Assembly: GCA_964532435.1 (NCBI GenBank)
Contig: CAZHIE010000003.1
Coordinates: forward strand, 1-44,445
Direction: 5' to 3'
Source of the DNA: an uncultured Planctomycetales bacterium
Lineage (GTDB): Bacteria > Planctomycetota > Phycisphaerae > UBA1845 > Fen-1342
Length of the DNA stretch: 44,445 nucleotides
This document shows, piece by piece, positions 19,267-40,172 of the stretch. The notes under the pieces were generated by a model that saw nothing but the letters and a program-made list of their open reading frames with translations, searched no databases and was not told the DNA's origin. The position numbers and the translations under genes were made by a program. Positions within the stretch are counted from its first letter, which is position 1. Each line of letters starts with the position of its first letter.

Positions 19267-21234
19267 ATGGCCGCCAAGCTCAAGTCCCCCCCAACCAAAC
19301 GCCCGGCGCCATCGCTCTTTGACAGCGCTCCGGCGCCGCGCTCTTCGCGCGCCGCCGAGACGATCGAGCCGGCGCCGCAGGTCGGCGAGCCAACCCGCGA
19401 TCCGCCCGCCGCCGAGCCGGAAGCGGCCGCGGAAAAGCACAACGGCCAGCCCGCCGCCGCGCGCGGCCGGCGCGCGGAAACCGCCGAGACGATGGGCGCC
19501 CGGCAGCGCGAAATCTCCGTCTCCGAGTTTTTCGCCAAGAACCGGCACCTGCTCGGCTTCGACAACAAGCGCAAGGCGCTTCTGACCACCGTCAAGGAAG
19601 CGGTCGACAACGCCCTCGACGCCTGCGAAGAAGCCGGCATCCTGCCCGACGTGTGGGTGACGATCGAGCAGCTCGCCGACGAGCGCTTTCGCGTCACCGT
19701 CCGCGACAACGGCCCCGGAATCCTCAAGACCCAGGTGCCCAACGTCTTCGGCAAACTGCTCTACGGCTCGAAATTCCACCGCCTCAAGATGAGCCGCGGC
19801 CAGCAGGGCATCGGAATTTCCGCCGCGGGCATGTACGGCCTGCTTACCACCGGCAAGCCGATCCTCGTCACGTCGCGCACCGCCCCCAGAAAGCCGGCCC
19901 ACCACTTTCAGATTGCGATCGACACGGCCAAGAATCGCCCGGACGTGATTCGCGACGAAGAGAGCGACGTCGCCTGGGACCGCGGCACCGAAGTGGCGAT
20001 CGAGCTGGCGGCGACGTACATGAAGGGCCGCCAGTCGGTCGACGAGTATCTGGAGCAGACTGCGATCGCCAATCCGCACGCGCAGATCGAATACAAGCTC
20101 GTGCTCGCCGGCGAGAGTTCGCCCACGCTGCGCGTCTTTCCCCGCGCCAGCCAGGAGCTGCCGGCCGAAACACGCGAGATTCAGCCGCACCCGCACGGAA
20201 TCGAGCTCGGCGTGCTGATGAAGATGCTCAAGGACGCCGGCGCGCCGCGCCCGCGCGGCGGCGACGGCGGGGCGCGCTCGTTGGCCGGCTTTCTGCAGCA
20301 GGAATTCTGTCGCGTCACGCCGCGCTCGGCCGGGGCGATCTGCGAGGCTGCGAAGCTCTCGCCCAAGGCGCGCCCCGCGCATCTGACCGGTCCGCAGGCC
20401 GAAGCGCTGTACCAGGCCATGCAGAGCGCCAAATTGATGGCGCCGCCGACCGATTGCCTGGCGCCCATCGGCGTGCGCGCGATTCTGGCCGGATTGCTCA
20501 AAGAGGTGAAGGCGGAATTCTATTCGGCCACGACGCGCGAGCCGGCCGTCTATCGCGGCAATCCGTTTCTGATCGAGTGCGGCGTCGCCTATGGCGGCGC
20601 GCTGCCCGGCGACGAGTCGGCCCGCGTGATCCGCTTCGCCAATCGCGTGCCGCTGCTCTACCAGCAATCGGCCTGCGCCTCGTTCAAGAGCGTGCTCGAC
20701 GTCGACTGGCGCAATTATGGCCTGTCGCAGCCGGGCAGCGCCGCGCCGGTCGGCCCGCTCGTCGTGATGATCCACGTCGCGAGCGTGTGGGTTCCGTTTA
20801 CCAGCGAGAGCAAGGAAGCGATCGCCGACTACGACGAAATCCGCAAGGAGATGAAGCTCGCACTTCAGGAATGCGGCCGCAAGCTCGCCGCATACGTTCG
20901 CCGCCGGCGGCGTCAGAAGCTGGAGGGCGAGCGGCGCAGCATCTTCGAGCGCTACATCGCCGACGTGGCCGAAGCGCTCGCCAGCCTGACGGGCGCCGCC
21001 GAAGGCCGCATCCGCGAGCAGCTTCAGGCGATCGCGCGCCGACGGACGGCCGAGGCCGACGTCGAACTTGACGAGGACGGCAAGCCGATCACCAAGCCAG
21101 CCGAAGCCGCCGAGGAGCTGTCGAGCGACGAGAGCATCGTGATCGTTCCGGAGAACGAGGCCGCCAGCGCGTCCACCGAGCTGTTCGACGCGCCGGCGGC
21201 GGACGAATCACCGCGCCGCCGGCGGCGCAAATAG
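19267..21234 (+). CDS. top6B: DNA topoisomerase VI subunit B (GHKL/Bergerat ATPase)
   Basis: ISVSEFFAKNRHLLGFDNKRKALLTTVKEAVDNALDACEEAGILPD (N box), VRDNGPGI (G1), SRGQQGIGIS (G2), and a transducer-domain tail ...WVPFTSESKEAI.... GGAGGG RBS 10 nt upstream. About 75 aa of low-complexity N-terminal extension. Confidence 0.9.
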   Translation: MAAKLKSPPTKRPAPSLFDSAPAPRSSRAAETIEPAPQVGEPTRDPPAAEPEAAAEKHNGQPAAARGRRAETAETMGARQREISVSEFFAKNRHLLGFDNKRKALLTTVKEAVDNALDACEEAGILPDVWVTIEQLADERFRVTVRDNGPGILKTQVPNVFGKLLYGSKFHRLKMSRGQQGIGISAAGMYGLLTTGKPILVTSRTAPRKPAHHFQIAIDTAKNRPDVIRDEESDVAWDRGTEVAIELAATYMKGRQSVDEYLEQTAIANPHAQIEYKLVLAGESSPTLRVFPRASQELPAETREIQPHPHGIELGVLMKMLKDAGAPRPRGGDGGARSLAGFLQQEFCRVTPRSAGAICEAAKLSPKARPAHLTGPQAEALYQAMQSAKLMAPPTDCLAPIGVRAILAGLLKEVKAEFYSATTREPAVYRGNPFLIECGVAYGGALPGDESARVIRFANRVPLLYQQSACASFKSVLDVDWRNYGLSQPGSAAPVGPLVVMIHVASVWVPFTSESKEAIADYDEIRKEMKLALQECGRKLAAYVRRRRRQKLEGERRSIFERYIADVAEALASLTGAAEGRIREQLQAIARRRTAEADVELDEDGKPITKPAEAAEELSSDESIVIVPENEAASASTELFDAPAADESPRRRRRK

Positions 21235-21305: not shown

Positions 21306-23717
21306 CTACAGCAGCAATCCGACGAAGGCGTCGATGTCCGCGTTGTCGTACTGCCCGTCGCCGTTGCAGTCGCCGCGCTTCACGCGATCGAGACCGGGGA
21401 ACGCCGTCTCGTAGCCGGCCGGGTCCGTCAGTCCCAGCACGAAGCCGTCGATGTCCGCGTTGTTCACGGCGTCGTCGCCGTTCATGTCGCCGCGCAGCGC
21501 GTACGTCGCCGTCACCGTGTCGTTTCCGTTGGCGACCCAGTCGAGCGAGTTGTCGCCGGCGGTCTGCGGCACGCCGTTGACCTGCCAGTAGCAGAAGGCG
21601 TACGTGAACGAACCGACCGCGCGCGTCAGCGGCGCGGTGAAGACGACCGGAATTCCGCCAACGTACACGCGCGTAAAGTTGGTCGTGCCGTCGCCGGCGA
21701 GGTTCATGTCCGGCGGGACGACGCCGATCAGATAGCCCGCGTTCGGCGCGGATTCCACGTTGACCGCGTAGGTCGTCTGCGGGAAGTAGTTCGCGACGGC
21801 GCTGGTCGTGTCGTTCACGGCGAACGTGATGATGCGCTGACCCAGCGGATAGTTGGTCGCGTTCACCGTCCAGCGCTCGAAATCGGCGCCCGGCACGGTC
21901 TCCGGCGCGTCGAGCGTGACCGACGTGCCGGGGTTGTACGAGCGGACGAACGGCGTCGTGCCGTTTCCGTTGCCGTTGTTGTCGTTGGGAGACACGAGAA
22001 TCAGCACGTTGCTCGCGCCGACCGAGCTGACCGTCAGCGCCTCGGCCGTCGTCCCGACGAACACGTCGTCGATGTACCACGCGTCGGTCGCGTCGCTCAC
22101 TTCCGGGCGGAAGCGCAGGCGGAACTCGTTGTGCCGCCCGTTCGACGGAACGGCGTGCGTGAATTGCGTGTAGACCGACTGATCGACGCCGTCGGACGTG
22201 ATGCGGTTGAGCTCGTTCCAGCGCAGGTTCGTGCCCCAGTATTCGACGACGAGCTGCTCGCCGTTCTCGACGCTGCGATGCTCGACCCAGTACGACACGT
22301 TCGCGCCGGTCACGCCCTGCAGCAGCATGAAGTTGGTGCGCAGGTCGTCGTCGGAATACGTCCCGCTGTTCACCGCGTTGAGCAGCGCCGAGAGCGTCCC
22401 GCTGGGCTCGCCCACGCCGGCCGACGAGATGCCCGCGCCGTCGTTGTAGATCCACTTGGTCGAGTCGAACGAGAGCGCCGGGAACGAGTCGCTGAACGGC
22501 AGCGTGCTCGCCGCCGGCAGGTTCGACAGGCACGAACGCGAGTTGCGGTGATTGACGATCTCCGCGATCGACTGCGCCGTGAACACCGAGCAGTTGCCGT
22601 TGCAGCCGCCCAGCCCCGAGCACATGATCGAGCAGGGCGGCGAGGCGTCGCAGTGCGACGCGCTCCAGTTGTGCCCGATCTCGTGAGCGCTCAGGCACGC
22701 GCGGATCGTCATGTTCGCCGACGAGCGCGACTGCACCACGCTGTAGCCGTTTCCGTTCGTAATGCTGTCGCAGACCACGGCCTGCCACGCGATGCCCAGC
22801 GTGTTGCCCGACATGTCCTTGCCCGTGAACAGCTCCGCGATGTCGCGGCGGATCGATTGCAGGTTCGTGTTCCACTCCGACTGCATCTCGACCAGCATGT
22901 TGTCGGCCACGAACGACGTGTACGGATCCGGCTCGGCCGTGCGAACGACGATCGTCGTAATCTCGAACGTAATGTCGCAGTCGCGCTCGTAGATCGCCTC
23001 GGTCACGTTCAGCACGCTCTCGATGTCGAACATCGTCGTGACCGGGTTGCTCGCGTTGAGCACGTAAAATTCGCGGTCGGCGTCGCACGCGATGTCGACG
23101 ATGCGGATCGTTCCGCCCGCGATGCCGCCCTCGACCGGAAGCTCGCCCGCGTCCGTGCGCGGCGCGTCGACGACGCCGCACACGCCCGGATTCGTCGGAA
23201 CAAAATCGGCCTGGCGATACGAAATGTGCAGCCCCGCCGGCAGGTTCGGCAGGTACTCCGACGCCGGCTGAACCGCCCACACCGCACCGTCCGGCATGTG
23301 AATCACCACGTCGAGCAGACCGTCGTGCAGCGAGCCGGCCACGCGGCTGCCCTCGACCTCCGCCACGTGCCCGCGGACGGTCGCCGCCGGCGGCGCGTCG
23401 GCCGCGCGGATTTTCCCGTCCTTGTCCTGCACGAGCAGGCGGAATCCGTCGCCGCGCATGCGATAGGGCGCCAGTTCGAGCGTGTAATCCTGTTCGCCGA
23501 GGCGAACGCGAACCGACGCGGCGACGCGTTCGTCCCCCGTGTCGGGGAGTTCAGGCGTGAAGACCTGAAAATCGAGCAGTTCGGGAATGACCAGCCCGTG
23601 CTGGCCGTCCTGCGCGGGCGCCGGGGCGACCGACTGCGGGGTCATGCCGGTCAGGCCGAACCAACCCAGCCCTGCCAATGCGAATGTGCCGACCAATGCG
23701 AGAAACTTGCGCGACAT
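21306..23717 (-). CDS. Secreted reprolysin/M12B-like zinc metalloprotease with jelly-roll and Ig-like domains and a C-terminal dockerin-like module
   Basis: Signal peptide MSRKFLALVGTFALAGLGWFG. Pro-domain, then the zinc site HEIGHNWSASH followed by a Cys-rich stretch. The C-terminus GDMNGDDAVNNADIDGFV...GDCNGDGQYDNADIDAFVGLLL contains two EF-hand-like dockerin repeats. Confidence 0.85.
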   Translation of the reverse strand: MSRKFLALVGTFALAGLGWFGLTGMTPQSVAPAPAQDGQHGLVIPELLDFQVFTPELPDTGDERVAASVRVRLGEQDYTLELAPYRMRGDGFRLLVQDKDGKIRAADAPPAATVRGHVAEVEGSRVAGSLHDGLLDVVIHMPDGAVWAVQPASEYLPNLPAGLHISYRQADFVPTNPGVCGVVDAPRTDAGELPVEGGIAGGTIRIVDIACDADREFYVLNASNPVTTMFDIESVLNVTEAIYERDCDITFEITTIVVRTAEPDPYTSFVADNMLVEMQSEWNTNLQSIRRDIAELFTGKDMSGNTLGIAWQAVVCDSITNGNGYSVVQSRSSANMTIRACLSAHEIGHNWSASHCDASPPCSIMCSGLGGCNGNCSVFTAQSIAEIVNHRNSRSCLSNLPAASTLPFSDSFPALSFDSTKWIYNDGAGISSAGVGEPSGTLSALLNAVNSGTYSDDDLRTNFMLLQGVTGANVSYWVEHRSVENGEQLVVEYWGTNLRWNELNRITSDGVDQSVYTQFTHAVPSNGRHNEFRLRFRPEVSDATDAWYIDDVFVGTTAEALTVSSVGASNVLILVSPNDNNGNGNGTTPFVRSYNPGTSVTLDAPETVPGADFERWTVNATNYPLGQRIITFAVNDTTSAVANYFPQTTYAVNVESAPNAGYLIGVVPPDMNLAGDGTTNFTRVYVGGIPVVFTAPLTRAVGSFTYAFCYWQVNGVPQTAGDNSLDWVANGNDTVTATYALRGDMNGDDAVNNADIDGFVLGLTDPAGYETAFPGLDRVKRGDCNGDGQYDNADIDAFVGLLL

Positions 23718-26043: not shown

Positions 26044-26421
26044 TCACAACCCGAGCAGCGCCAGCGTCAGGCCCACGGCGCCGATGAGCAGGCTCGCGAC
26101 CGGCACGATGAAGATCGGCTTCAGCGCCGCTCGCCAGGCCGTCAATCCGCAGCACAACGGCATCGCAATTCCGCCGACGATCATAGACCACGAGGTGAGT
26201 CGCAAGTCCAAGCCTTTGTCGGAAAGTCTGTAGGCAGTGAGTGAATAAAGTACATTCAGAATGCCCAGGCCGAAGAACGAGATGTGCCCCAGCCGCACCA
26301 GCCGACGGCGATACGAGTCATATCCGCCGAGCCAGTCCGCCCGGTGAAAGAACAACCCCAGCACCGCGCCGCTCGCCAGCCCCAGGCTGATCCACAGCCA
26401 TCCAAAGATCTCATTGTTCAT
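26044..26421 (-). CDS. Small 4-TM membrane protein, first gene of the radical SAM operon
   Basis: MNNEIFGWLWISLGLASGAVLGLFF..., four hydrophobic segments, 51 nt upstream of the radical SAM gene on the same strand. Confidence 0.7.
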   Translation of the reverse strand: MNNEIFGWLWISLGLASGAVLGLFFHRADWLGGYDSYRRRLVRLGHISFFGLGILNVLYSLTAYRLSDKGLDLRLTSWSMIVGGIAMPLCCGLTAWRAALKPIFIVPVASLLIGAVGLTLALLGL

Positions 26422-26657
26422 GCCGAATCATACGCCCGTCCGGCCAGCGGGTTTCAGCCCGGCGTCGCCCTTTCGCCACGCCCCGCGCCGTTTCGGCAAT
26501 CCGCGGAATTCCGGCGAATTTCCGCTTACCGGACGAAAGAGGACGATACGCTTGGTTCCTGGCGGGATGCGCTGAAGCGGCCGCGACGCGCGGCGATCGT
26601 CCTCGGCGGCTCGTATCTCTCCCGCCCTCGCGCCAAACACGTCATCGGAGGCAAACG

Positions 26658-29534
26658 ATGTTTCGCGAATTCTCCCGCAGTGTCAGCGCTCTCCTTCGAT
26701 TCCCGCTCGCGCTCGGCGCGCTTGCTGCGCTGGCCGCTCCGCTGGCCGCGCAGGTGCGCGTGCAGTTTTCGACCGAGGTCGACTTCACCGCGACGGGCGG
26801 CCCGCACGCGGGTCAACAGATTCACGAGGGCGACCAGCTCGACACGCAGGGCCGCGTGGTTCGCACATATGCCGACCTGCTCTCCGGCTTCTGCCCGATG
26901 CCGCCGGTTGTCGACTACGGGCTCGACGCGCTGCACGTTCTTCCGGACGGCCGCGTGCTCTTCTCGACGGAGCGGGGCTGGTTCGACGAGTGCCTGAGCG
27001 AATTCGTTAGCGACGGCGATCTGTTGAGCAGCGATGGTCAGGTGGCGCAGACAACCCGCAGCCTGATGCGCAATTTCCACCCGATGCCGACGGTGCCGGA
27101 TGTCGGCCTCGACGCCGTTCACGTGCTGGCGTCGGGCGAAGTGCTGTTTTCGATCGAGACCGACATCTTCGATGAATCGCTCGGCGTCCTGCTCACGCAC
27201 GGCGACGTGCTGAGCGAGCGCGGTGCGGTCGTCGCGACCAACGATCACCTGCTTCGCAACTTCTGCCGCAAGCCGGTGGCCGGAAACGCCGGGCTCGACG
27301 CGCTCTACCTGCCGGGCAATGGCGAAGTCTGGTTCTCGGTCGAGACGGGCTTCTTCGACGAATGCCAGAGCCGCACGATCTCCGACGGCGACCTGCTGTC
27401 CGACGCCGGATACGTCGTGGCGACGAATCGCCAGCTTACGACCGCATTCTTCTCGGGCGGGCCGGCTCTTGCGGGTCTGGGCCTCGACGCGGTCGGCGCG
27501 CTGCCGCCGTTCGCCGATTGCGGCGTGCTGGCCCCCGGGCCGCAGGGCTGCATCTGGTTCGTCGCCGACGGCGGCGGCGCGTACTTCATCGAAAACGTGG
27601 GCGCGTTCGGCGTTGGCGATCGCGTGTACGTCGCGGGCCGGCTCAACCCGCAATCGTTCCTGTGCGCCCCGCCGATCGGGCCGGGCATCGAGGACAACAC
27701 GATCCAGGCCTGTTTCGCCGGCTGCGGCACGATCATCAATACTCCCGAGTGCCGCCTCTTTCACGCCGACGCGGGCGGAATCTTCGTCCTGACGAATCCC
27801 GGCGGAGCGAGCGTCGGCGAGCGCGTCTGGGTCAGCGGGCCGATCGAGCCCGATTGCGCCGGCGCGTGCGCGACGGATCTGCCGTGCATCCGCAATCGCC
27901 CGCCGGGCGAGTGTTTTGACGAATGCGGCGTGCTGGTGCAGGGGGTGGAATGCGTCCTGCTCCAGACCGCCGGCGGCGACTTGCTCGTCGTGCAGAATCT
28001 CGGCGGCTTCGGCGTCGGCGATCGCGTGCGCGTCCGCGGCAGCCTCGACCGGCTCTGCATCACATTCTGCCAGCAGGGACAGGGTTGCGTGAACGACAAC
28101 ACCATCGAGGCGTGCGCGCCTCGCTTCGCCGGCTGCGGCGTGCTCGTGCGCGGCGTGGAATGCACGCTCTTCGCGGCCGACTCGGGCGGGCTGTGGGTGC
28201 TCGACACGCTGGGCGGATTCGGCGCGGGCGATCGCGTGTGGGTCACGGGCGAGATCGAATCGCCATGCGTGACGTTTTGTCAGGAGGGCACGGGCTGCAT
28301 CCACAATGCGTCGATCGGCGCGTGTTTCGAGGATTGCGGCGTGCTGGTTCAGCCCGGCGGCAGCAACTGCCTCGTGATCGACACGGGCGGACAGCGCTAC
28401 GTCATCGCCAATCCCGGCGAATTCCAGCCCGGCGATCGCGTGTGGGTCGAGGGCTGCCTGGTCTTCGGCGGGTGCAGCGATGCATGTGGCGTCGATCTGC
28501 CGTGCGTGCTCGACAACACGATCGGGCGCTGTTTCGAGGATTGCGGCCGGCTGGAGAACGGGCCGCAGGGCTGCGCGGTCGTGATTACCGACGACGGAAC
28601 GAGCTACCTTCTGGAGCGCGACAGCGAATTGCCGCGCGGCACGCGCGTGTGGGTGCAGGGCTGCCTGAATCCGCAATCGCACGTCTGCCCGCCGTTCACC
28701 GCGCCGGGCATCGAGCGCAACCGCATCGGCCGCTGCGTGGAATCGTGCGGCGACCTGCGCTCCGGGCCGCAGGGTTGCACCGTGTTCGTCATCAACGAGA
28801 ACACTGGCTATTTCATCGAGAACACCGGCGCGTTCGGCTTGGGCGATCGCGTCTGGGTGAAGGGCTGCCTGGAGGCCGAAACGCAACTGTGTCAGCCGTT
28901 CACGGCGCCAGGCATCGTTCGCAACACGATCGGGCGCTGCTTCGAGGGTTGCGGTCGGCTGGCGGTCGGGCCGCAGGGCTGCACGGGGTTGCGCGTGTCG
29001 AATCTCGAGTTCTACGTCATCGAGAACACCGGCTCGTTCCAGATCGGCGACGAAGTGTGGGCGACCGGCTGCCTGAATCCGCAATCGCGACTGTGCCTGC
29101 CGCTGACGCTTCCGGCAATCGAGGACAACCGCGTGGGCGTGTGTTTCGACGAGTGCGGGCGACTGATCGGCACGCCGGACGGTTGCACGGTGCTGCTCAC
29201 GGCGACGGGCCGGTACGCGCTCGACAACCTCGGCGGGCTGCATCGCGGAGATGCGGCGCGCGTGCGCGGCTGCCTGGAGCGCGACTGCGTGTCGGCGTGC
29301 GGCGCCTTGGCCGGCTGTGTGCGCGACAACACGGTGTTCGGTCCGCTCGGCGACATGAATTGCGACGGGACGACGGACAACGGCGACATCGACGGCTTCG
29401 TGCTGGCGCTGATCGATCCGGCCGCGTACGCGGCGCAATTTCCGAATTGCGACATTCGCCGGGCGGACACGAACTGCGACGGCGCGGTGGACAATGGCGA
29501 CATCGATTCGTTTGTGCGGCTGCTGATTGAGTAG
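26658..29534 (+). CDS. Secreted tandem-repeat protein: 4 x ~62-aa repeats, 9 x ~68-aa Cys-rich repeats, C-terminal dockerin-like module
   Basis: GGAGG RBS. Signal peptide ...LGALAALAAPLAAQ. Repeat A (aa 37-284) has the form FS.E..FFDE......DGDLLS..G.VVATN..L...F.....GLDA. Repeat B (aa 285-897) has the form CFE.CG.L..GPQGC........Y.IEN.G.F..GDRVWV.GCL.....C......I..N.IG. The protein ends GDMNCDGTTDNGDIDGFV...DTNCDGAVDNGDIDSFVRLLIE. Confidence 0.85.
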   Translation: MFREFSRSVSALLRFPLALGALAALAAPLAAQVRVQFSTEVDFTATGGPHAGQQIHEGDQLDTQGRVVRTYADLLSGFCPMPPVVDYGLDALHVLPDGRVLFSTERGWFDECLSEFVSDGDLLSSDGQVAQTTRSLMRNFHPMPTVPDVGLDAVHVLASGEVLFSIETDIFDESLGVLLTHGDVLSERGAVVATNDHLLRNFCRKPVAGNAGLDALYLPGNGEVWFSVETGFFDECQSRTISDGDLLSDAGYVVATNRQLTTAFFSGGPALAGLGLDAVGALPPFADCGVLAPGPQGCIWFVADGGGAYFIENVGAFGVGDRVYVAGRLNPQSFLCAPPIGPGIEDNTIQACFAGCGTIINTPECRLFHADAGGIFVLTNPGGASVGERVWVSGPIEPDCAGACATDLPCIRNRPPGECFDECGVLVQGVECVLLQTAGGDLLVVQNLGGFGVGDRVRVRGSLDRLCITFCQQGQGCVNDNTIEACAPRFAGCGVLVRGVECTLFAADSGGLWVLDTLGGFGAGDRVWVTGEIESPCVTFCQEGTGCIHNASIGACFEDCGVLVQPGGSNCLVIDTGGQRYVIANPGEFQPGDRVWVEGCLVFGGCSDACGVDLPCVLDNTIGRCFEDCGRLENGPQGCAVVITDDGTSYLLERDSELPRGTRVWVQGCLNPQSHVCPPFTAPGIERNRIGRCVESCGDLRSGPQGCTVFVINENTGYFIENTGAFGLGDRVWVKGCLEAETQLCQPFTAPGIVRNTIGRCFEGCGRLAVGPQGCTGLRVSNLEFYVIENTGSFQIGDEVWATGCLNPQSRLCLPLTLPAIEDNRVGVCFDECGRLIGTPDGCTVLLTATGRYALDNLGGLHRGDAARVRGCLERDCVSACGALAGCVRDNTVFGPLGDMNCDGTTDNGDIDGFVLALIDPAAYAAQFPNCDIRRADTNCDGAVDNGDIDSFVRLLIE

Positions 29535-31075: not shown

Positions 31076-31131
31076 CGCGCCCGGGCGCGCAACTGTAATT
31101 CGTTATTCGCAATTCGCTATTCGCAATTCAC
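31076..31131. repeat. Second copy (56 bp, identical by eye) of the core plus right arm of the 29534-29622 element
   Basis: CGCGCCCGGGCGCGCAACTGTAATTCGTTATTCGCAATTCGCTATTCGCAATTCAC occurs at 29567-29622 and 31076-31131. This copy lacks the left arm and overlaps the lpdA stop codon (31128-31130). Confidence 0.85.
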
Positions 31132-32534
31132 GCATTCAGCGCCCTTCCGTCCACCGCCAGCGCCGCCTCCTTGAGGCATTCCGCCAGCGTCGGGTGCGCG
31201 TGCGAGCTGCGGGCGATGTCTTCGCTGCTGGCGCCGAATGCGATCGCGACCGCGGCTTCGGCGATCAGGTCGCCGGCCCGCGGGCCGATGATGTGTACGC
31301 CCAGCACGCGATCGGTCTCGGCGTGCGCCAAAATCTTCACCCGCCCGTCGGTCTGCTGGAGCGCGCGGGCGCGGGCGTTCGCCCGAAACGCGAAAATGCC
31401 CTTGCGATACGGCACGCCGTCCTGCTTCAGCTCTTCCTCGCTCTTACCGACCGACGCGATTTCCGGGTTCGTGTAAACGACGCCGGGAATCGCATCGTAA
31501 TTCACGTGGCCGTGACCCGTGGCGATGATCTCCGCGCACGCGACGCCCTCCTCCTCGGCCTTGTGCGCCAGCATCGGCCCGCGCACCACGTCGCCGATCG
31601 CGAAGACGTCGGCCGCGCTCGTGCGGAATGCGTCGTCGATTTCGACTCGGCCGCGCTCGTCGAGCTTCACGCCGATCGCGTCGAGGCCGAGATCGTCCGT
31701 ATTGGGGATGCGGCCGACGGCCAGCAACACGCGGTCGCAACGGAGCGGTTCGCGGCCCTCGACCGCGACGACGCACTCGCCGTCCTTGGCGCCTTTCTCG
31801 CGCCGCGCGCCGGTCACTTTCGCGCTCAGGACGAATTCGATGCCCTGCTTCTGAAACGTGCGCAGCGCCAGCTCGGCCGTCTCGGCGTCCATGCCGGGCA
31901 GGATGCGCGGCAGATATTCGAGCACCGTGACGCTCGCGCCGAGCCGCTGCCAGACCGAACCGAGCTCCAGCCCGATGTAGCCCGCGCCGATCACGATCAT
32001 GCGCCGCGGCACCTCGGCATAGCTCAGCGCCTCGGTGCTCGTGCCGATGCGCTCGCCATCCAGCTCGACGCCGCGCAGCGGGGCGACCTTGCTGCCGGTC
32101 GCGAGGATCAGCCGCGCGGCTTCGACGACCTTCTCGCCGTCGGCGGCCTTCACGCGCACGGTGTATCCGTTCGCGCCGCGGCCGGTGATCCGCGCATGGC
32201 CCGCGTAGCGCGTGATTTTGTTCTTTTTCATCAGCCCGGCGACGCCGTCGGTCAGGCCGCGGACGATTTCGTCCTTGCGTTTGAGCATGGCGGGCAGGTC
32301 GAGCTGCACGTCGCCGCACACGACGCCGTGGACCGCCAGCCCCGAGCGCGCCTCGTGATAGCGCTCGGACGATTCGAGCAGCGCCTTGCTCGGAATGCAG
32401 CCGACGCGCAGGCACGTGCCGCCCAGCGCGGGCTCTTTCTCAACGATTGCGACGTTGAGGCCGAGCTGTGCCGCGCGGATGGCGGCGACGTATCCGCCGG
32501 GGCCGGCGCCAATGACAAGAAGGGCGTGTTGCAT
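31128..32534 (-). CDS. lpdA: Dihydrolipoyl dehydrogenase (E3)
   Basis: GAGPGGYVAAIRAAQLG, redox-active GGTCLRVGCIPSK, and a C-terminal HAHPTLSE-like HAHPTLAE dimer-interface motif. Confidence 0.92.
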   Translation of the reverse strand: MQHALLVIGAGPGGYVAAIRAAQLGLNVAIVEKEPALGGTCLRVGCIPSKALLESSERYHEARSGLAVHGVVCGDVQLDLPAMLKRKDEIVRGLTDGVAGLMKKNKITRYAGHARITGRGANGYTVRVKAADGEKVVEAARLILATGSKVAPLRGVELDGERIGTSTEALSYAEVPRRMIVIGAGYIGLELGSVWQRLGASVTVLEYLPRILPGMDAETAELALRTFQKQGIEFVLSAKVTGARREKGAKDGECVVAVEGREPLRCDRVLLAVGRIPNTDDLGLDAIGVKLDERGRVEIDDAFRTSAADVFAIGDVVRGPMLAHKAEEEGVACAEIIATGHGHVNYDAIPGVVYTNPEIASVGKSEEELKQDGVPYRKGIFAFRANARARALQQTDGRVKILAHAETDRVLGVHIIGPRAGDLIAEAAVAIAFGASSEDIARSSHAHPTLAECLKEAALAVDGRALNA

Positions 32535-32559
32535 CGAGTTAGCGTCCTAACAGGCGGAA

Positions 32560-32741
32560 AATGCTGAATGCTGAATTATGAATGCTGAATGACAGATGAC
32601 GGTCCGCGGCGTTTCAGCATTCGGGGGTCTCCGGCGCCCGGCCCACCACTTGCGTGGTGGGTTCGGATTGTAGCATTCAGCATTCAGCATTCAGCATTTA
32701 GCACTCAGCGTTCAGCATTTAGCATTTGGCATTTAGCATTC
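32560..32741. repeat. Inverted heptamer arrays (AATGCTG x ~5 versus AGCATTC x 10) flanking a GC-rich core, in the sucB-lpdA intercistronic region
   Basis: Left array 32560-32601 and right array 32672-32741 are reverse complements of each other. The core contains the perfect hairpin CCCACCAC-TTGC-GTGGTGGG (32642-32661). The right array runs over the sucB TAA (32733-32735). Confidence 0.85.
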
Positions 32742-33968
32742 GACAATCATTCGGGCCGGCTCTTCGACGCAGTCCTTGATCCGCCGAAGGAACGTCACCG
32801 CTTCGCGCCCGTCCACGATGCGGTGGTCATACGTCAGCGCGACGTACATCATCGGCCGGATGACGACCTGCCCGTCGCGCGCCACCGGGCGATCCTGAAT
32901 CGCGTGCAGCCCGAGAATGCCGCTCTGCGGCGGGTTCACAATCGGCGTCGAGAGCAGCGAACCGAACACGCCGCCGTTACTGATCGTGAACGTGCCGCCC
33001 TGCAATTCGTCGAGCTTGAGCTTGTTGTCGCGGCCGCGCGCGCCGAAATCGGCGATGGCCTTCTCGATTTCCGCAAAGCTGAGCCGCTCGGCGTTGCGAA
33101 TCACCGGAACCACCAGCCCCTTGCCGGCCGACACCGCGACGCCGATGTCGTAGTAATTGCGGTAGGCCACATCCGTGCCGCGAATCTCGGCGTTGAGCTG
33201 CGGAAACTGGCGCAGCGCGTCGATCGCCGCCTTCACGAAAAAGGACATCAGTCCGAGCCGCACGCCGTAGCGCTTCTCAAAGGCGTCCTGATGCTGCTTG
33301 CGCAGCGCGCTGACCGCCGACATGTCGATCTCGTTGAACGTCGTCAGCAGCGCCGCGACGGCTTGCGCCTCGACCAGCCGCTCCGCCACGCGACGCCGCA
33401 ACGGCGTCATCGGCACGATCTCTTCGGCGCGCTCACCATTGTGGGCGATTCGCCCGCCGGCCGGCGGGACGGCGCCGTCGGCTCGCGCCGGACCCGCTGC
33501 GGGTGCGGCCGGCTTCTCCACGTGCCGGGCGACATCTTCCTTCAACACGCGGCCGCCGGGCCCGCTCGGCGTGACCTCGCCCGGCGAAACGCCGCGCTCG
33601 GCGGCCAGCCGCGCCGCAGCCGGCATGACGCGCGGCGGAGACGCCGGCGCTGCGGCGGCCGCAGCGGGGCGACTTTCGGCCGGCGGTTTCGACGCCGGCG
33701 CGGCCGTTTCCTTCTTCGCGGCCGGGGCGGCGCCTTCCTCCATATAGGCGATCACTTCGCCGATTGCGGCCTTTTGTCCGGGCTGCTTGATGACCTTGGT
33801 GATGGCGCCGCTGACGGGCGCGGCGAGTTGAAACGTCGCCTTGTCCGTCTCGATCTCCATGACGACGTCGTCCTTGGCGACCGGCTCGCCGGGTTGCTTG
33901 AGCCACGGGCCGATCTCGACCTCGGAGATCGACTCGCCGACGGCGGGCACTTTCAGTTCGACGGGCAT
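32733..33968 (-). CDS. sucB: Dihydrolipoamide succinyltransferase (E2 of 2-oxoglutarate dehydrogenase)
   Basis: Lipoyl domain MPVELKVPAVGESISEVEI...VMEIETDKATF, Ala/Pro linker, E3-binding segment, and a catalytic domain with YDHRIVDGREA. Confidence 0.92.
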   Translation of the reverse strand: MPVELKVPAVGESISEVEIGPWLKQPGEPVAKDDVVMEIETDKATFQLAAPVSGAITKVIKQPGQKAAIGEVIAYMEEGAAPAAKKETAAPASKPPAESRPAAAAAAPASPPRVMPAAARLAAERGVSPGEVTPSGPGGRVLKEDVARHVEKPAAPAAGPARADGAVPPAGGRIAHNGERAEEIVPMTPLRRRVAERLVEAQAVAALLTTFNEIDMSAVSALRKQHQDAFEKRYGVRLGLMSFFVKAAIDALRQFPQLNAEIRGTDVAYRNYYDIGVAVSAGKGLVVPVIRNAERLSFAEIEKAIADFGARGRDNKLKLDELQGGTFTISNGGVFGSLLSTPIVNPPQSGILGLHAIQDRPVARDGQVVIRPMMYVALTYDHRIVDGREAVTFLRRIKDCVEEPARMIVEC

Positions 33969-34103
33969 GTTGGCTCTCTTTGCTGGTACGGACTCGTCCC
34001 GCGACCGGTCCGGGATCGCGCTGGCTCAAACCTCGAGCGCCTCGGATACGCACAATCGTCGAAGGCCGCCGGGCGGATGCAGCCGCCACTTCGGCCGCGA
34101 GGT

Positions 34104-34227
34104 TCGCTCGCTGACGCTCGCGGCTCTGATCGGATCGCTCGCTGACGCTCGCGGCTCTGATCGGATCGCTCGTTTACGCTCGCGGTTCAGATCGGATCGC
34201 TCGTTTGCGCTCGCGGCTTTGAAGAGC
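34104..34227. repeat. Four tandem copies of a 31-bp unit (TCGCTCGCTGACGCTCGCGGCTCTGATCGGA) at the sucA-sucB junction
   Basis: Copies at 34104-34134 and 34135-34165 are identical. Those at 34166-34196 and 34197-~34227 are diverged. Each junction carries GATCGGATC (six GATC sites in ~70 bp). The sucA stop (34174-34176) lies inside copy 3. Confidence 0.85.
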
Positions 34228-37101
34228 CGGCGAGCCGCGCGACGCGACGCCGCGCTCGGTCCCGCCGCCTTCGCCGCTCTCGCTTCCGAGCGGCCCGAAC
34301 GCGCCGCTCACCACGCGCTCCTGTTCGATGCGGTGGCTCGCGCCCGAGCCCGTGGCCGGGCTGGCCGCCGCCGGGCGCGACACGCACGTCCACGGAAAGC
34401 GCCCCAGCAGCCGCTCGCCATAGAGAATCCGCAAAAACCGCCAGGCGCCCATGTTTTCCGGCTCTTCCTGCACCCACACCGCCGGCGTGTCGTCGGCGAA
34501 GCCGGCCAGAGCCTGGCGCAGCGCATCGGTCGGCAGCGGGTAAAGCTGCTCAACGCGGATGATCGCTACGTCGCCGCGCTTCCGTTCGTTCCGCGCCTTG
34601 TCGAGCTCGTAGTAAATCTTTCCGGTGCAGAGAAGGATGCGCTTCACGTCCGGCCGCACCGCATGGTCGCCGTTGCCGTTCGATGGGCGCGGGCCGGCCT
34701 GCGCTTCGCCCATCGGCGTGTCGGCGATCACGCGCTGGAAGTCGCCCTGCGCGAATTCGGAGAGCGGCGAGACCACCAGCGGATTCCGCAGCATGCTCTT
34801 GGGCGTCATCACTACCAGCGGCTTGCGCCATTTACGCAGCACCTGCCGCCGCAGCAGGTGGAAGAGCTGCGCCGGCGTGCTCGGATACGCGACCTGCATG
34901 TTGTCGCCGGCGCAGAGCGACAGGAATCGCTCCGGCCGGGCGCTGCTGTGCTCGGGCCCCTGCCCCTCGAAGCCGTGCGGCAGGAGCACGACCAGCCCGC
35001 TCAGACGGTTCCACTTGTCCTCGGCCGAGCAGAGGAACTGGTCGAAGATGACCTGCGCGACGTTGGCGAAGTCGCCGAATTGCGCCTCCCACATCACAAG
35101 CCCGTCGGGACAATCGAGGCTGTAGCCATAGTCGAAGCCGAGCACGCCGATCTCGCTCAACGGGCTGTTGATCAGCTCGACGGCGCCCTGGTTTTTGCCC
35201 AAATTCTGAAACGGGCAGAACGATTGCCCGGTTTCAAAATCGTGGAAAACGCCGTGGCGATGGCTGAACGTGCCGCGCTGGCTGTCCTGCCCGCTCAGGC
35301 GGATGCGCACGCCCTCGGCCGCAAGCGTCGCCAGCGCGAGCGACTCGCCGCCCGACCAGTCGAGCGGGCGTTTGCCGGCGGCCATCTCGCGGCGCGCTTC
35401 GAGGAACTTGGCGATTTTCGGATGCGCGCGGAAACCGGGCGGAAGCTGCGTCAGTTGCTCCAGCGTCTGGCGGGCGCGCTCCGGCGAGACGGCCGTCGTC
35501 ACGTCGACCGCGTCGCTCTCCGGGCCGCCGGCGTAGCCGGCCCACACCGCGCTGACGCCGACGTGCCGATACTGGTAATCCTCGCGCCGCGCGATCGTCA
35601 GTTCCTGCTCCAGGCTCGCCTTGCGCTCGTCGGCGATTCGGGCGGCCTCTTCCGGCGCGACGCCGCCCAGCTTCAGCAGCCGCTCCAGGTACGCGTCGCG
35701 CACGCTGGGCCGCTGCTCGATCGCGCGGTACATCAGCGGTTGCGTAAACTGCGGCTCGTCGCCCTCGTTGTGCCCGCGCCGGCGATAGCAGTACATGTCG
35801 ATCACGACGTCCTTGCGATACTTGGCACGATAATCGAGCGCGATGTCGACCACCTGCGCGACCGCCTCCGGATCTTCGCCGTTGACGTGAAAAATCGGAA
35901 TATGCAGCATCTTGGCGACTGCGGTCGCGTACGTGCTCGATCGCCCCTCGGCCGGGCTGGTCGTGAACCCGATCTGGTTGTTGACGACGACGTGCAGCGT
36001 GCCGCCCGTCGTGTAGCCGGGCAATTCGCTGAGGTTGAGCGTCTCCTGGACGACGCCTTCGCCCGCGAAGGCCGCGTCGCCGTGGATCAGCACCACCAGC
36101 CCGCGCTCGCCGCGCACGTCGCCGCTGCGGTCCTGCTTGGCGCGCATCCGCCCGAGCGCCACCGGGTTGACGAACTCCAGGTGGCTGGGGTTGAAGCACA
36201 GCGAGAGCGCCACGCGCCGCCCCGTCGCCGCGGTCCATTCGCCGTTGTAGCCGAGGTGATACTTCACGTCGCCGCGCCCGCCCAGGTGCAGGGCCGGGTC
36301 GGCGTCCTCAAACTCGCGGAAAATCTGCTGCGCGCTCTTGCCCATCACGTTCGCCAGCACGTTGAGCCGGCCGCGATGCGCCATGCCGAGCACGATCTCC
36401 ACCACGCCCTGCTCGGCGGCTTTCTCGATGGACAGGTCGAGCAGCGGGATGAGGCTTTCCGCGCCTTCGAGCGAAAACGTCTTGGCGCCCAGATACTTCT
36501 TCTGGATGAACTGCTCGAAGATCACCGCGTCGGTCAGCCGCGTCAGGATGCGCAACTGCGTCTGGCGGCTCAGGCGGATGTGATTCTCCGACGACTCCAT
36601 CCGGTCCTGAAGCCACTTGCGCACGCTGTGATCGTCGATGTGCATGAACTGTGCGCCGATGAACCGGCAATACGTGTTGTGCAGCAGCAACAGCACTTCG
36701 CGCAGCGAGCAGACCCGCCCGCCGCCCAGCGAGTCGAGCGAAACCGCCCGCTCCATGTCGGCCTCGGTGAAGCCGTAATAGCGCGGGTCAAGCTCGGGCG
36801 GAACGTCGCGCGGCTGCCCCAGCGGATCGAGACACGCGATGATGTGCCCCCGGACGCGGTAGTTCCGAATGAGCTGATCGACGCGCTGCTGGAGCACGGC
36901 GATCCCGACATCCTGCCGGCTGGTCCCCGCCCCGTGAAACAGGCTGCCCGGCGAGCCGCTCGGACCCACCCCGCCATGCCACGATGAGAAATACGTCTGC
37001 CACTCGGGACCGACGGCCTGCGCATCGCGCAGGTAATCGACGTAGAGCGCCTCGACATAGGCGAGGTTGCCGGCCGCCGGCTGCTGTCCGGGAGTACTCA
37101 T
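34174..37101 (-). CDS. sucA: 2-oxoglutarate dehydrogenase E1 component
   Basis: MSTPGQQPAAGNLAYVEALYVDYL... start at ATG 37101. Full-length SucA-like body (GMAHRGRLNVLAN, HGDAAFAGEGVV, LLPHGFEGQGPEHSSAR). The last ~45 aa, beyond ...HRIEQERVVSGAF, look like a non-conserved tail running into the tandem repeat. Confidence 0.9.
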   Translation of the reverse strand: MSTPGQQPAAGNLAYVEALYVDYLRDAQAVGPEWQTYFSSWHGGVGPSGSPGSLFHGAGTSRQDVGIAVLQQRVDQLIRNYRVRGHIIACLDPLGQPRDVPPELDPRYYGFTEADMERAVSLDSLGGGRVCSLREVLLLLHNTYCRFIGAQFMHIDDHSVRKWLQDRMESSENHIRLSRQTQLRILTRLTDAVIFEQFIQKKYLGAKTFSLEGAESLIPLLDLSIEKAAEQGVVEIVLGMAHRGRLNVLANVMGKSAQQIFREFEDADPALHLGGRGDVKYHLGYNGEWTAATGRRVALSLCFNPSHLEFVNPVALGRMRAKQDRSGDVRGERGLVVLIHGDAAFAGEGVVQETLNLSELPGYTTGGTLHVVVNNQIGFTTSPAEGRSSTYATAVAKMLHIPIFHVNGEDPEAVAQVVDIALDYRAKYRKDVVIDMYCYRRRGHNEGDEPQFTQPLMYRAIEQRPSVRDAYLERLLKLGGVAPEEAARIADERKASLEQELTIARREDYQYRHVGVSAVWAGYAGGPESDAVDVTTAVSPERARQTLEQLTQLPPGFRAHPKIAKFLEARREMAAGKRPLDWSGGESLALATLAAEGVRIRLSGQDSQRGTFSHRHGVFHDFETGQSFCPFQNLGKNQGAVELINSPLSEIGVLGFDYGYSLDCPDGLVMWEAQFGDFANVAQVIFDQFLCSAEDKWNRLSGLVVLLPHGFEGQGPEHSSARPERFLSLCAGDNMQVAYPSTPAQLFHLLRRQVLRKWRKPLVVMTPKSMLRNPLVVSPLSEFAQGDFQRVIADTPMGEAQAGPRPSNGNGDHAVRPDVKRILLCTGKIYYELDKARNERKRGDVAIIRVEQLYPLPTDALRQALAGFADDTPAVWVQEEPENMGAWRFLRILYGERLLGRFPWTCVSRPAAASPATGSGASHRIEQERVVSGAFGPLGSESGEGGGTERGVASRGSPALQSRERKRAIRSEPRA

Positions 37102-37355
37102 GGGGCTTTCTGCGCAAAGCGCGTAAGTCTCGATTCTGTCAGAGCATACAACCGGTTGCCAACCTGGCCCGCCCCCCGCGCCCCGGCGCACGCCGCGAAC
37201 CCGGTAGTGTATCGCGCGCCGCCGCCTGCGTCGAGGAAGCGCCCGACCCATCCGCCCGACAATCCCAACTATATTATCGGCCGAAGTGCCGCGGCGACCG
37301 TTGTTTCGGCGCGAGGAATGGGCGCGGCCGGGCGGCCGGTTCGGGAGTGCAGCGA

Positions 37356-40172
37356 ATGAACGCACTGTTGCGGAGTCGGAGCGCCGGCGGTGTCACTACG
37401 CTCTTGGCACTTTGTCTCTATTGCGCCCCGCAGGCGGTCGGCCAAAACGAGCCGTTCAAGAAGCTGGGCGAGTGCAACGTGCGCTGGGAGACTCCCAGCG
37501 CCGATTGCCACGGATCGATGCCGATCGGCAACGGCGACGTTGCGGCGAACGTCTGGTGGGAGGCGGGCGGCGACCTGTGCCTGCTCATCGCCAAGTCGGA
37601 TGCGTGGGACGACAACGCGCGGCTCGTGAAGGTGGGCAAGGTCCGCGTTCAATTCGCGCCGAATCCGGTCATCGGCAAGAAGTTCTCGCAACTGCTGGAC
37701 GTCGCATCCGCAACGGTGCGCTTCACGCTCGGCGAAATGCCGATGGCGACGCAGGTAAACGTCTGGGTCGACGCCAACCTGCCGGTGATCCACATCGACG
37801 TGTCCGCGTTTCAGCCGATCTCCGCCACCGCCGTCGTCGAGCCGTGGCGCACGCAACCCGAAGCGCTCGCGCACACCGAAATCGGAGACGGCAACTATGA
37901 GCACAACGTCCCCGGCAATCAGCATCTCCCGCTGATCGTCGAGCCCGACACGTTTCTAACCGGGCAGAGCGGCCGCATCGGCTGGTACCATCGCAACGTC
38001 AAGTCGATCGGCCCGGCGTTGTCGGCCGAGTTGCAAGACATGGCCGACTTCAAGCAGCCGGACCCGCTCTTGCACCGCACGTTCGGCGCGATTGTGCGCG
38101 CCGACGCCGCGCTGCGAATCGACGATCGAACGCTGCGCTCCGTGCCCGACATCAGCCACCGCTTCGACATCTTCGTCCATACGAAACACCCGGCCACCGG
38201 GGAAGAGTGGCTGGCCGAGGTCGAGCAGCGCATCGCGGAAGCGGACGCAACGCCATTCCTGCAACGGCGCGTCGCGCACGTCGATTGGTGGCGGAAGTTC
38301 TGGGAACGAAGCTGGATCTTTGTGTCGACGCCGAAGGGAGCGCGCGGCGCGGCGGCGTTCGCGGCGAACGATCACCCGGTTCGCGTCGGCGTCGATCAAG
38401 CTGGACAGAACCGGTTCGCCGGGCAGATCGGGCGCGTCAGCCTGTTTGAATACGCCCTTTCGGACGCCGCCGTCATTACGCTGGCCGCGCTGCCGCGCGA
38501 TCAGGTGGCGCCCGCCGCCGGCGAGCCGCGATTCAGCGTGCTGGACGGCGCGCAGCCCGAACCGCCGCTGACGGCGCTCGATCTGTCCCGCGGCCTGACG
38601 GTGGAAGCGTGGATTCGCCCGGAGCAGCTTCCGCCGGGCGGCGCTCGCATTCTCGACAAGACGACGCCCGGCGGCGTGGACGGCTTCCTGTTCGACACTT
38701 ATCCCGGCAACAGTCTGCGGCTGATCACGCGCGCCTGCACGGTGACAAAACGCGACTGTCTGCCCGTCGGCGAGTGGTCGCACGTCGCCGCGGTGGTCGA
38801 TCCGGCGCGCGGCGAGTTCCGGCTGATGATCAACGGCGCGGTCGTCGCGCAGCAGAAGCAGGAAATCATCGACGACGGGGCGGTCGTGTCGCGGGCGTAC
38901 GCGCTGCAACGCCTCATCACCGCCTGCGCCGGTCGCGGCGCGTATCCGATCAAGTTCAACGGATCGCTCTTCACCGTGCCGCACGAGGGCGGCCCCGGCG
39001 GGCCGGATTACCGCCGCTGGGGCGCTGGCTATTGGTGGCAGAACACGCGGCTGACGTATGTGCCGCTCTGCACGAGCGGCGACTTCGACCTGTTGGCGCC
39101 CCTGTGGCGCATGTACGCCGGCGTGCATCTGCCGATGGCGCTGCACCGCACGCGCAAGGTCTTCGGCCACGGCGGCGCGTTTCTCAACGAGTGCGCCTAC
39201 TTCTGGGGCGCGGCGTTCAACGAGTCGTATGGCTGGACGCCGCTCGAAAAGCGCGAGTGCCGCGAAAACGAAAGCCGCTGGCACCGCTGGGAGTGGCAGG
39301 GCGGCATCGAGCTGGTCTGGATGATGCTCGATGAATACGACCACACGCGCGACCAGACGTTTCTGCGCGAAACCCTGCTGCCGTTCGGCCGCGAAATCCT
39401 GACGTTCTACGACCTGCACTACCGCGACGACGAGCGCGGCCGCATCGTGATTCAGCCGGCTCAGGCGCTGGAGACGTGGTGGGATTGCACGAATCCGATG
39501 CCGGAGATCGCCGGCCTGCGAGCCGTGACGCAGCGACTGTTGGACCTGCCGGAGAGCGCCGCTGCGCCGGCCGAGCGCGAGCTGTGGAAACGCTTGCAGC
39601 GGCGGCTGCCCGATCTGCCGATGCGCGACGTGGACGGCAAGCGCACGCTCGCGCCGGCCGAGCGCTTTGACACGAAGCGAAACGTGGAGAACCCGGAGCT
39701 GTATGCGGTGTTTCCATATCGTCAGATGGCCGTTGGCGCGTCCGACCTGGCGCCGGCGCTGGAGGCGTTGCGGCGGCGCGAGGATCGCGGGCACAACGGC
39801 TGGCGTCAGGACGTCATTTTCATGGCGTATCTGGGGCTGTCGGACGACGCCGGCGCGGCGCTTGTGGAGCGGGCGCGCCGCTTCGACGCGGGTGAGCGAT
39901 TTCCCGCGTTCTGGGGGCCGAATTTCGACTGGACGCCGGATCAATGCCACGGCGGCGTGCTCATGAAGACGTTGCAGTCGATGCTGATTCAAACGGATGG
40001 CCAGCGCATTTTCGTCGCGCCTGCCTGGCCGGCCGAGTGGAACGCGGCGTTCCGGCTGTATGCGCCGGGTCAGACGATCGTGGAGGGCGAGATCGCGGGC
40101 GGGAAGATCACGTCGCTGAAAGTGACGCCGCCGGAGCGCGAGCGCGACGTTGTGCGAATGATCGGGCAGTGA
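37356..40172 (+). CDS. Secreted DUF5703-like / (alpha/alpha)6 glycoside-hydrolase-like protein with an inserted LamG-type module
   Basis: GGGAG RBS; signal peptide. N-terminus MPIGNGDVAANVWWEAGGDLCLLIAKSDAWDDNARLVKVGKVRV resembles DUF5703/GH95-like N-domains (from memory). Internal GLTVEAWIRPEQL...GEWSHVAAVVD...FRLMINGAVV is LamG/concanavalin-like. Confidence 0.7.
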   Translation: MNALLRSRSAGGVTTLLALCLYCAPQAVGQNEPFKKLGECNVRWETPSADCHGSMPIGNGDVAANVWWEAGGDLCLLIAKSDAWDDNARLVKVGKVRVQFAPNPVIGKKFSQLLDVASATVRFTLGEMPMATQVNVWVDANLPVIHIDVSAFQPISATAVVEPWRTQPEALAHTEIGDGNYEHNVPGNQHLPLIVEPDTFLTGQSGRIGWYHRNVKSIGPALSAELQDMADFKQPDPLLHRTFGAIVRADAALRIDDRTLRSVPDISHRFDIFVHTKHPATGEEWLAEVEQRIAEADATPFLQRRVAHVDWWRKFWERSWIFVSTPKGARGAAAFAANDHPVRVGVDQAGQNRFAGQIGRVSLFEYALSDAAVITLAALPRDQVAPAAGEPRFSVLDGAQPEPPLTALDLSRGLTVEAWIRPEQLPPGGARILDKTTPGGVDGFLFDTYPGNSLRLITRACTVTKRDCLPVGEWSHVAAVVDPARGEFRLMINGAVVAQQKQEIIDDGAVVSRAYALQRLITACAGRGAYPIKFNGSLFTVPHEGGPGGPDYRRWGAGYWWQNTRLTYVPLCTSGDFDLLAPLWRMYAGVHLPMALHRTRKVFGHGGAFLNECAYFWGAAFNESYGWTPLEKRECRENESRWHRWEWQGGIELVWMMLDEYDHTRDQTFLRETLLPFGREILTFYDLHYRDDERGRIVIQPAQALETWWDCTNPMPEIAGLRAVTQRLLDLPESAAAPAERELWKRLQRRLPDLPMRDVDGKRTLAPAERFDTKRNVENPELYAVFPYRQMAVGASDLAPALEALRRREDRGHNGWRQDVIFMAYLGLSDDAGAALVERARRFDAGERFPAFWGPNFDWTPDQCHGGVLMKTLQSMLIQTDGQRIFVAPAWPAEWNAAFRLYAPGQTIVEGEIAGGKITSLKVTPPERERDVVRMIGQ

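Follow-up and report, generated by a model that had tools for sequence, protein, structure and literature searches.

A predicted secreted Phycisphaerae protein with a four-repeat N-terminal domain, nine DUF5818 units and a dockerin-like tail

We analyzed a 44,445-nucleotide stretch of DNA (contig CAZHIE010000003.1; hereafter the window) in which a real gene, an open reading frame (ORF) of 958 codons, encodes a modular, predicted secreted protein of a Phycisphaerae (Planctomycetota) bacterium. From its N-terminus, the protein comprises a signal peptide, four repeats of ~62 residues (block 1), nine cysteine-rich repeats of 67–70 residues (block 2), and a dockerin-like tail. This is the architecture that the original prediction, made from the sequence alone, had described; its block boundaries were right to within a few codons and are refined in Table 1. 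Our preferred reading, to which we assign a probability of about 0.5, is that the protein is a secreted non-catalytic binding subunit made of a propeller-like head, nine disulfide-stapled units resembling the oligonucleotide/oligosaccharide-binding (OB) fold, and a dockerin anchor. Modular dockerin-tagged extracellular proteins are a known kind; the head domain of this one is uncatalogued and its rod of DUF5818 units is undescribed.

The ORF has G+C contents of 0.67, 0.51, and 0.84 at the first, second, and third codon positions, the same pattern as the real genes of the window, and a Shine-Dalgarno-like sequence stands before its start codon (Table 1). On inspection, the N-terminus has a basic n-region, a LALGALAALAAPLAA core, and a site between LAA and Q, and it reads as a Sec signal peptide. 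Block 1 begins at about residues 22–43 in close homologues too. The whole protein matched no NCBIfam model and had no sequence relative in the PDB; phosphoheptose isomerase matches in the PDB sequence search (E 0.02–0.05) were set aside as chance. As had been anticipated, EGF, FG-GAP, PKD, cadherin, and beta-helix families were absent from the Pfam matches.

Block 1 had been taken for an array of 62-residue repeats. The repeats are real, but we found the block better described as a single closed domain of ~250 residues with four fixed repeats than as an open array, because its copy number is fixed, profile matches run from end to end, and the predicted model is confident as a whole. Among 92 homologues, ~80 have exactly four copies and three have eight, arranged as two tandem domains; in the most distant homologues, three copies were detected. 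A profile search covering 1.84 billion representatives returned no fewer than 523 clusters, defined at 50% identity (E ≤ 0.001; 252 of them at E ≤ 1e-30), nearly all of which match profile positions ~1–252 as a single stretch. The AlphaFold2 model of block 1 has a predicted local distance difference test score (pLDDT) of 93.1 and a predicted template modeling score (pTM) of 0.89. In this model, DSSP assigns roughly six short strands and one short helix to each 62-residue repeat, and the repeat register suggests that the N-terminal 'VQFST' and C-terminal 'GLDAVGAL' strands are placed to close the ring in a velcro-like manner.

Block 1 had no Pfam match even at E ≤ 10, none in NCBIfam, and no meaningful sequence match in the PDB. 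When its model was searched with Foldseek, beta-propellers were the best matches, with probabilities of 0.98–1.0, but global template modeling (TM) scores were at most 0.37 and root-mean-square deviations (rmsd) were 7–10 Å. The matches included virginiamycin B lyase (E 2.9e-5), the BT4663 sensor, NHL proteins, hemopexin, and the designed Pizza protein. For the four-bladed hemopexin-like propeller in particular, there was no Pfam match at E ≤ 10, and the TM scores to 1hxn, 3c7x, and 1itv were 0.33–0.34. Going by the model, block 1 thus appears propeller-like at the level of the blade, with no close solved counterpart. The domain is hosted by Phycisphaerae, other Planctomycetota, Verrucomicrobiota, and a few Anaerolineae metagenome-assembled genomes (MAGs). 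Its partners in other proteins are DUF5818, right-handed beta-helix, DUF7901, PQQ/NHL propellers, EF-hands, and dockerins, and it also occurs in FG-GAP/LamG/P-domain giants. Such reuse with many extracellular partners is typical of a recognition module.

Both repeat families had been called unrecognized. This holds for block 1, but the cysteine-rich repeat is the Pfam family DUF5818 (PF19135), which the whole protein matches over five stretches with 81.7 bits against a gathering cut-off of 27 (E 2.7e-23). Individual units of block 2 match at E 1e-4 to 2e-3, and the PF19135 annotation is already precomputed on homologues. The consensus motifs proposed earlier for these units were all found. In an alignment of 39 units, the first core cysteine (C3, after strand 1) and the glycine of the V-x-G motif are invariant. 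The core cysteine pair, with one member after strand 1 and the other in the strand 4–5 loop, and the G-D-R-V-x-V-x-G strand are present as they are in single-domain members of the family (P0104 and P0093–P0101 were compared). DUF5818 is named in no paper of the literature we searched, and a profile search found no solved relative in the PDB.

The adjacent units R5 and R6 were modeled together with AlphaFold2 from an alignment of 27 unit pairs, which gave a pLDDT of 93.6 and a pTM of 0.85. Five strands and a short helix make up each modeled unit. The R5-R6 junction is crossed, through C-F-E-D-C-G, by a single strand (model residues 64–82, aa 616–634) that is at once the last strand of one unit and the first of its neighbor. 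Because this junction strand is continuous and the pTM is high for a two-domain construct, the array is predicted to form a stiff rod. All Foldseek matches of the DUF5818 model were OB-type barrels, namely the CSD/S1 domains of RNase II, ribosomal S1, HIN, Mpa, RPA, SSB, and TOBE domains from ABC ATPases. None was strong: the best E value in the PDB was 1.5e-3, and single units gave TM (target) values of 0.43–0.52 with rmsd of 3.1–5.7 Å over 69–80 columns. A viral structure library gave nothing besides OB folds, and sub-threshold Pfam matches of a relative were to the tRNA_anti-codon OB fold (E 4e-4 in P0240) and to DUF5666. We therefore describe the modeled unit as a putative 'OB-like' five-stranded barrel, for which an SH3-like strand order is a possible alternative. 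No well-characterized family emerged, nor did any known adhesin or carbohydrate-binding module with an identical fold; DUF5818 is uncharacterized, and there was no close fold match.

The repeats of both blocks are statistically robust and old. Pairwise local alignment scores between copies were compared with those of composition-preserving shuffles, giving a mean z of 17.6 (minimum 6.8) for block 1 and of 17.9 (minimum 7.1) for block 2. The latter mean stays at 10.7 once every cysteine is deleted. Amino acid identities are 36–50% among the four copies of block 1 and 25–54% among the nine of block 2, nucleotide identities between copies are 44–64%, and Tandem Repeats Finder detected no array at the DNA level. 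Every one of the nine units of block 2 has a closer relative in some other protein than among its siblings, which argues for an old array, as the original prediction had supposed from the divergence of the copies.

Outside this protein, DUF5818 occurs singly and in series. Single-domain members have ~100–126 aa and consist of a signal peptide and one unit, sometimes with an IPTL-CTERM or a hydrophobic tail. A search with the array alone returned many proteins without block 1, and several relatives consist of a signal peptide, 4–10 DUF5818 units, and a dockerin, with nothing else. Among the array-only proteins, P0235 has seven units, P0236 and P0238 have six, and P0241 and P0248 have ten; the unit number across all fetched proteins takes the values 1–7, 9, and 10. 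The nine-unit array is therefore large, yet it is not unique, since ten-unit arrays exist. In other array relatives, DUF5818 is accompanied by fn3. Several further architectures were observed. DUF3160 is fused behind one N-terminal DUF5818 unit in proteins of ~800–1070 aa (P0270–P0278), the Zixibacteria protein P0244 has six units and a type IX secretion system (T9SS) sorting domain (Por_Secre_tail), and P0101 has one unit and an IPTL-CTERM. In the homologue P0006, two DUF5818 units are followed at residues ~431–650 by about five cysteine-rich repeats of ~38 aa with the pattern A-C-C-x-x-D-G-x-C ... G-G-x-P-Q-G-x-G-x-x-C, which we matched to no family.

That the array has a role of its own follows from the array-only proteins, which weaken the idea of a pure spacer. 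One alternative to our reading is accordingly that the array is the main functional part of the protein, a polyvalent binder of OB type whose ligand would be a polymer (a glycan, a peptide, or extracellular nucleic acid) or metal ions, with the head as an accessory. Besides the headless proteins with 4–10 units and a dockerin, this explanation would account for an OB-like fold whose relatives bind oligonucleotides, oligosaccharides, and small ligands (TOBE), for the polar and aromatic residues conserved within the units (Y-x-[IL]-E-N and G-D-R-V), and for the series of extra cysteines (C4) described below. We nevertheless consider it doubtful, as the units have no significant sequence relation to characterized binding families, their most conserved residues (glycine, cysteine, and hydrophobics) look structural, and, as in spacer domains, their copy number varies freely (1 to 10).

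The nine units of block 2 contain, in order, 3, 6, 6, 6, 7, 5, 5, 5, and 7 cysteines. The count of 4–6 per copy given earlier was too narrow. In a table of cysteine positions anchored on the match states of a hidden Markov model over 233 DUF5818 units, the 'CG' cysteine at the start of a unit is associated with a cysteine just past the unit end (43/68 versus 2/10, p = 0.015). In first or single units, the cysteine of 'V-x-G-C' (C4) is found only with an extra cysteine at most 13 aa upstream (6/6 versus 0/57, p = 9e-5). These associations fit with disulfide staples within the unit. Since the unit of the single-domain member P0104 has just one cysteine pair, the extra cysteines of block 2 are a lineage-specific elaboration. 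The interior C4 series is confined to units R5–R9 (C600, C669, C737, C805, and C872), and three cysteines compete at each R5–R9 junction. In 45 multi-unit relatives, the parity of the total cysteine count tracks that of the interior C4 count (p = 0.011). The C4 cysteines could be free thiols, could form inter-unit or intermolecular disulfides, or could be metal ligands. In block 1, the cysteines at aa 79, 112, 203, and 236 are present or absent in pairs (all four in 7 cases, the first two in 1, and none in 70), a pattern consistent with two disulfides and an oxidizing location.

We also considered a cysteine-rich metal-binding mini-domain of the metallothionein or zinc-ribbon type. It was set aside on the single cysteine pair of P0104, the ordinary beta barrel predicted for the unit, and the disulfide-like pairing of the cysteine columns. 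The disulfide- or metal-stabilized mini-domains first suggested for block 2 are thus borne out as regards disulfide-like co-occurrence and not as regards a cysteine-dependent mini-domain, the predicted unit being an ordinary OB-like barrel.

The tail contains two duplicated segments, DMNCDGTTDNGDIDGF and DTNCDGAVDNGDIDSF, each with an EF-hand-like calcium loop of the pattern D-x-N-x-D-G-x-x-D-x-x-D, followed by a helix. Both calcium loops are intact. In 30 copies of this tag, D4, N6, D8, D15, D42, and D53 are invariant and a cysteine pair is nearly so. The dockerin-like nature noted earlier was upheld at the profile level: Pfam Dockerin_1 (PF00404) is matched by 28/30 tag copies at E ≤ 1 (best 2.6e-8), and the tag profile matches solved dockerins (5m2o_B at 7.9e-6, and also 4fl4, 6kg9, and 1ohz). 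The NCBIfam model 'GC-type dockerin domain-anchored protein' is weakly matched by 14/30 copies. A GTDB genome scan with the single protein, which recovered the dockerin tag only, located the 60-aa module in 50 Phycisphaerae/Planctomycetota MAG loci at 41–67% identity. At least 79 distinct ORFs bear the tag. Their products range from roughly 100 to 2217 aa, and in nearly all of them no more than about ten residues separate the tag from the stop codon; a locus often has several copies. Tag-ending genes were seen to cluster in loci L004, L035, L030, and L039, with up to four or five tags per ~16-kb locus. A random sample of the tagged proteins included M1 and M28 peptidases, a glucose/sorbosone dehydrogenase (GSDH), a BNR/sialidase-like protein, a lactonase propeller, an EEP nuclease/phosphatase, and Ig-like proteins. 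By its sequence, the tail would be a divergent type-I dockerin that serves as a lineage-wide tag.

A cohesin/dockerin 'planctosome' that docks M12B and M14 peptidases has been proposed for Phycisphaerae from genomics, and cohesin modules have been reported there (PMC6461901). In the window, the C-terminus of an M12B reprolysin-like metallopeptidase encoded upstream (Table 1) bears the same tag (nt 21309–21491; 57% identical, E 1e-17). This peptidase belongs to the cargo class proposed for the planctosome (PMC6461901) and is probably a fellow cargo of one docking system. A different view of the tail is that it is a lineage-specific secretion, sorting, or envelope-anchoring signal, comparable to the T9SS C-terminal domain, PEP-CTERM, or IPTL-CTERM, and that the protein is a surface-anchored or released adhesin outside any assembly. 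The almost invariable position at the extreme C-terminus, the very diverse cargo, the many copies per genome, and the lack of a cohesin in the window would all suit such a signal. So would the true sorting domains that follow DUF5818 in other lineages (Por_Secre_tail in P0244 and IPTL-CTERM in P0101) and the words 'domain-anchored' in the name of the related NCBIfam model. We regard this view as unlikely, because the tag, in which both calcium loops are intact, shows a profile-level relationship to true type-I dockerins and because Phycisphaerae cohesin modules have been reported (PMC6461901).

Table 1. Modules of the 958-aa protein and neighboring genes, in positions of the window.
Feature	Position (nt)	Strand	Remarks
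Shine-Dalgarno-like GGAGG	26647–26651	+	6 nt 5' of the ATG; read in the sequence
Whole ORF	26658–29534	+	958 aa and stop; homologues down to E 2.5e-178
Signal peptide (reading)	26658–26750	+	aa 1–31, MFREFSRSVSALLRFPLALGALAALAAPLAA followed by Q; from sequence features
Block 1, four repeats of 62–63 aa	26757–27506	+	aa 34–283; repeats start at aa 34, 96, 158, 220
Block 2, nine DUF5818 units	27507–29345	+	aa 284–896; units start at aa 284, 352, 419, 486, 556, 625, 693, 761, 829
Putative divergent type-I dockerin tag, C-terminal	29346–29531	+	aa 897–958; two DxNCDGxxDNGDIDxF loops
Multihaem cytochrome c-like protein	880–3021	+	713 aa
ORF of 1113 aa	13953–17294	+	good third-position G+C, no Pfam match
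PSP1-domain gene	17402–18781		just upstream of the topoisomerase VI B-like gene
Topoisomerase VI subunit B-like protein	19267–21234	+	Topo-VIb_trans and HATPase_c
M12B reprolysin-like metallopeptidase	21306–23717	-	803 aa; Reprolysin_3, E 1e-15; ~3 kb upstream
Membrane protein ORF	26044–26421	-	125 aa; divergent from the gene; good third-position G+C, no Pfam match
ORF of 464 aa	29679–31073	+	directly downstream of the gene; good third-position G+C, no Pfam match
2-Oxoglutarate dehydrogenase set	31128–37365	-	E3 31128–32534, E2 32733–33968, E1 34174–37365
DUF5703_N, LamG_3, and GH95-like protein	36984–40172	+	1062 aa

The other neighbors of the gene, which also include a B12-binding radical SAM enzyme, are unrelated to it (Table 1). 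A passive structural fiber or surface-layer component with no specific ligand would sit well with this setting among housekeeping genes, as it would with the predicted rigid rod, the many cysteines, and the lack of a catalytic domain. Yet block 1 forms a discrete globular domain, strongly conserved and reused with many partners, which is typical of recognition modules, and the dockerin tag is common to enzymes; we judge such a fiber very improbable.

If the preferred reading of a non-catalytic binding subunit is correct, the protein would be exported through Sec as three extracellular modules. Block 1, a closed beta domain with four-fold pseudosymmetry, would be the likely ligand-recognition head. 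The nine DUF5818 barrels, joined head to tail by the C-F-E-x-C-G junction strand and stapled by disulfides, would form a stiff rod, by rough estimate of some 25 nm, that keeps head and anchor apart and presents binding surfaces repeatedly along its length. The dockerin, of the calcium-binding type, would anchor the protein by way of a cognate receptor, located either at the cell surface or in a multi-protein assembly. In that position the protein could capture substrates or particles, as one subunit of a surface system of the cellulosome (or 'planctosome') type.

Several observations weigh against this reading. No ligand, partner, or cohesin was identified, the last having been looked for within the window. 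There are no conserved neighbors either, as two homologue loci share none with the window or with each other. The protein's own tail scores below the Pfam Dockerin_1 cut-off (10.6 versus 22.9 bits, E 0.68–0.71). Both folds come from predicted models: the similarity of block 1 to propellers is weak globally, and no Foldseek match of DUF5818 reached E ≤ 0.001 in the PDB. The proteins made of a signal peptide, a DUF5818 array, and a dockerin imply that the array is more than a spacer for the head. Finally, the protein has an odd number of cysteines (57), and the reading does not account for the C4 series.

A more speculative idea, argued by analogy, is that DUF5818 arrays supply the receptor or scaffold modules still missing from the docking system of Phycisphaerae. 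In place of canonical cohesins, their units would bind the many dockerin tags borne by secreted hydrolases, which would make this protein a scaffold with nine sites and a propeller head. An adaptor scaffoldin consists of n cohesins and a dockerin, an architecture mirrored by 4–10 DUF5818 units with a C-terminal dockerin, and the C4 cysteines might lock such assemblies through intermolecular disulfides or metal sites. We give this idea little credence.

Planctomycetota, and Phycisphaerae especially, encode many large secreted proteins of unknown function, and how their extracellular hydrolysis is organized is poorly understood. The locus unites three reusable parts, namely an uncatalogued four-repeat domain of ~250 aa, a DUF5818 rod, and a dockerin tag, present across the lineage, by which non-catalytic binders are connected to peptidases and further hydrolases. 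To judge from the literature searched, the models described here provide the first confident predicted fold and rod-like tandem arrangement for DUF5818. Should the docking model be true, such proteins would serve as binding subunits in a system that resembles a cellulosome without being one; should it be false, a new domain family entry for block 1 and a fold annotation for DUF5818 would still be justified.

Each of the three parts resembles a known system and departs from it. Like beta-propellers, block 1 is a closed domain with a fixed repeat number; classical blades have ~40–50 aa and four strands, whereas the repeats of block 1 have 62 aa, about six short strands and a helix in the model, and number four only, and no Pfam propeller repeat matches them. 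The five-stranded small barrel predicted for the DUF5818 units had its best, though weak, matches among tandem OB domains (S1 repeats, the CSD/S1 domains of RNase II, HIN-200, Mpa, and RPA) and TOBE domains. The array differs from these in its predicted extracellular location and disulfides, in the modeled junction strand shared between units, and in having no above-threshold sequence relation to them. Compared with the single-domain members of their own family, the nine units keep the core G-V-E-C ... G-D-R-V-x-V-x-G ... C-Q-Q-G, but here they stand in series, have 3–7 cysteines each, and are joined by a C-x3-C-G junction motif. The tag has the duplicated calcium-loop and helix module of the dockerins of cellulosomes and of the planctosome, itself a genomics-based hypothesis (PMC6461901), and like them it lies at the C-terminus and is common to many secreted enzymes, M12B peptidases included. 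In contrast to those dockerins, the tail of this protein scores below the family cut-off, has a conserved cysteine pair, and is borne by a non-catalytic cargo.

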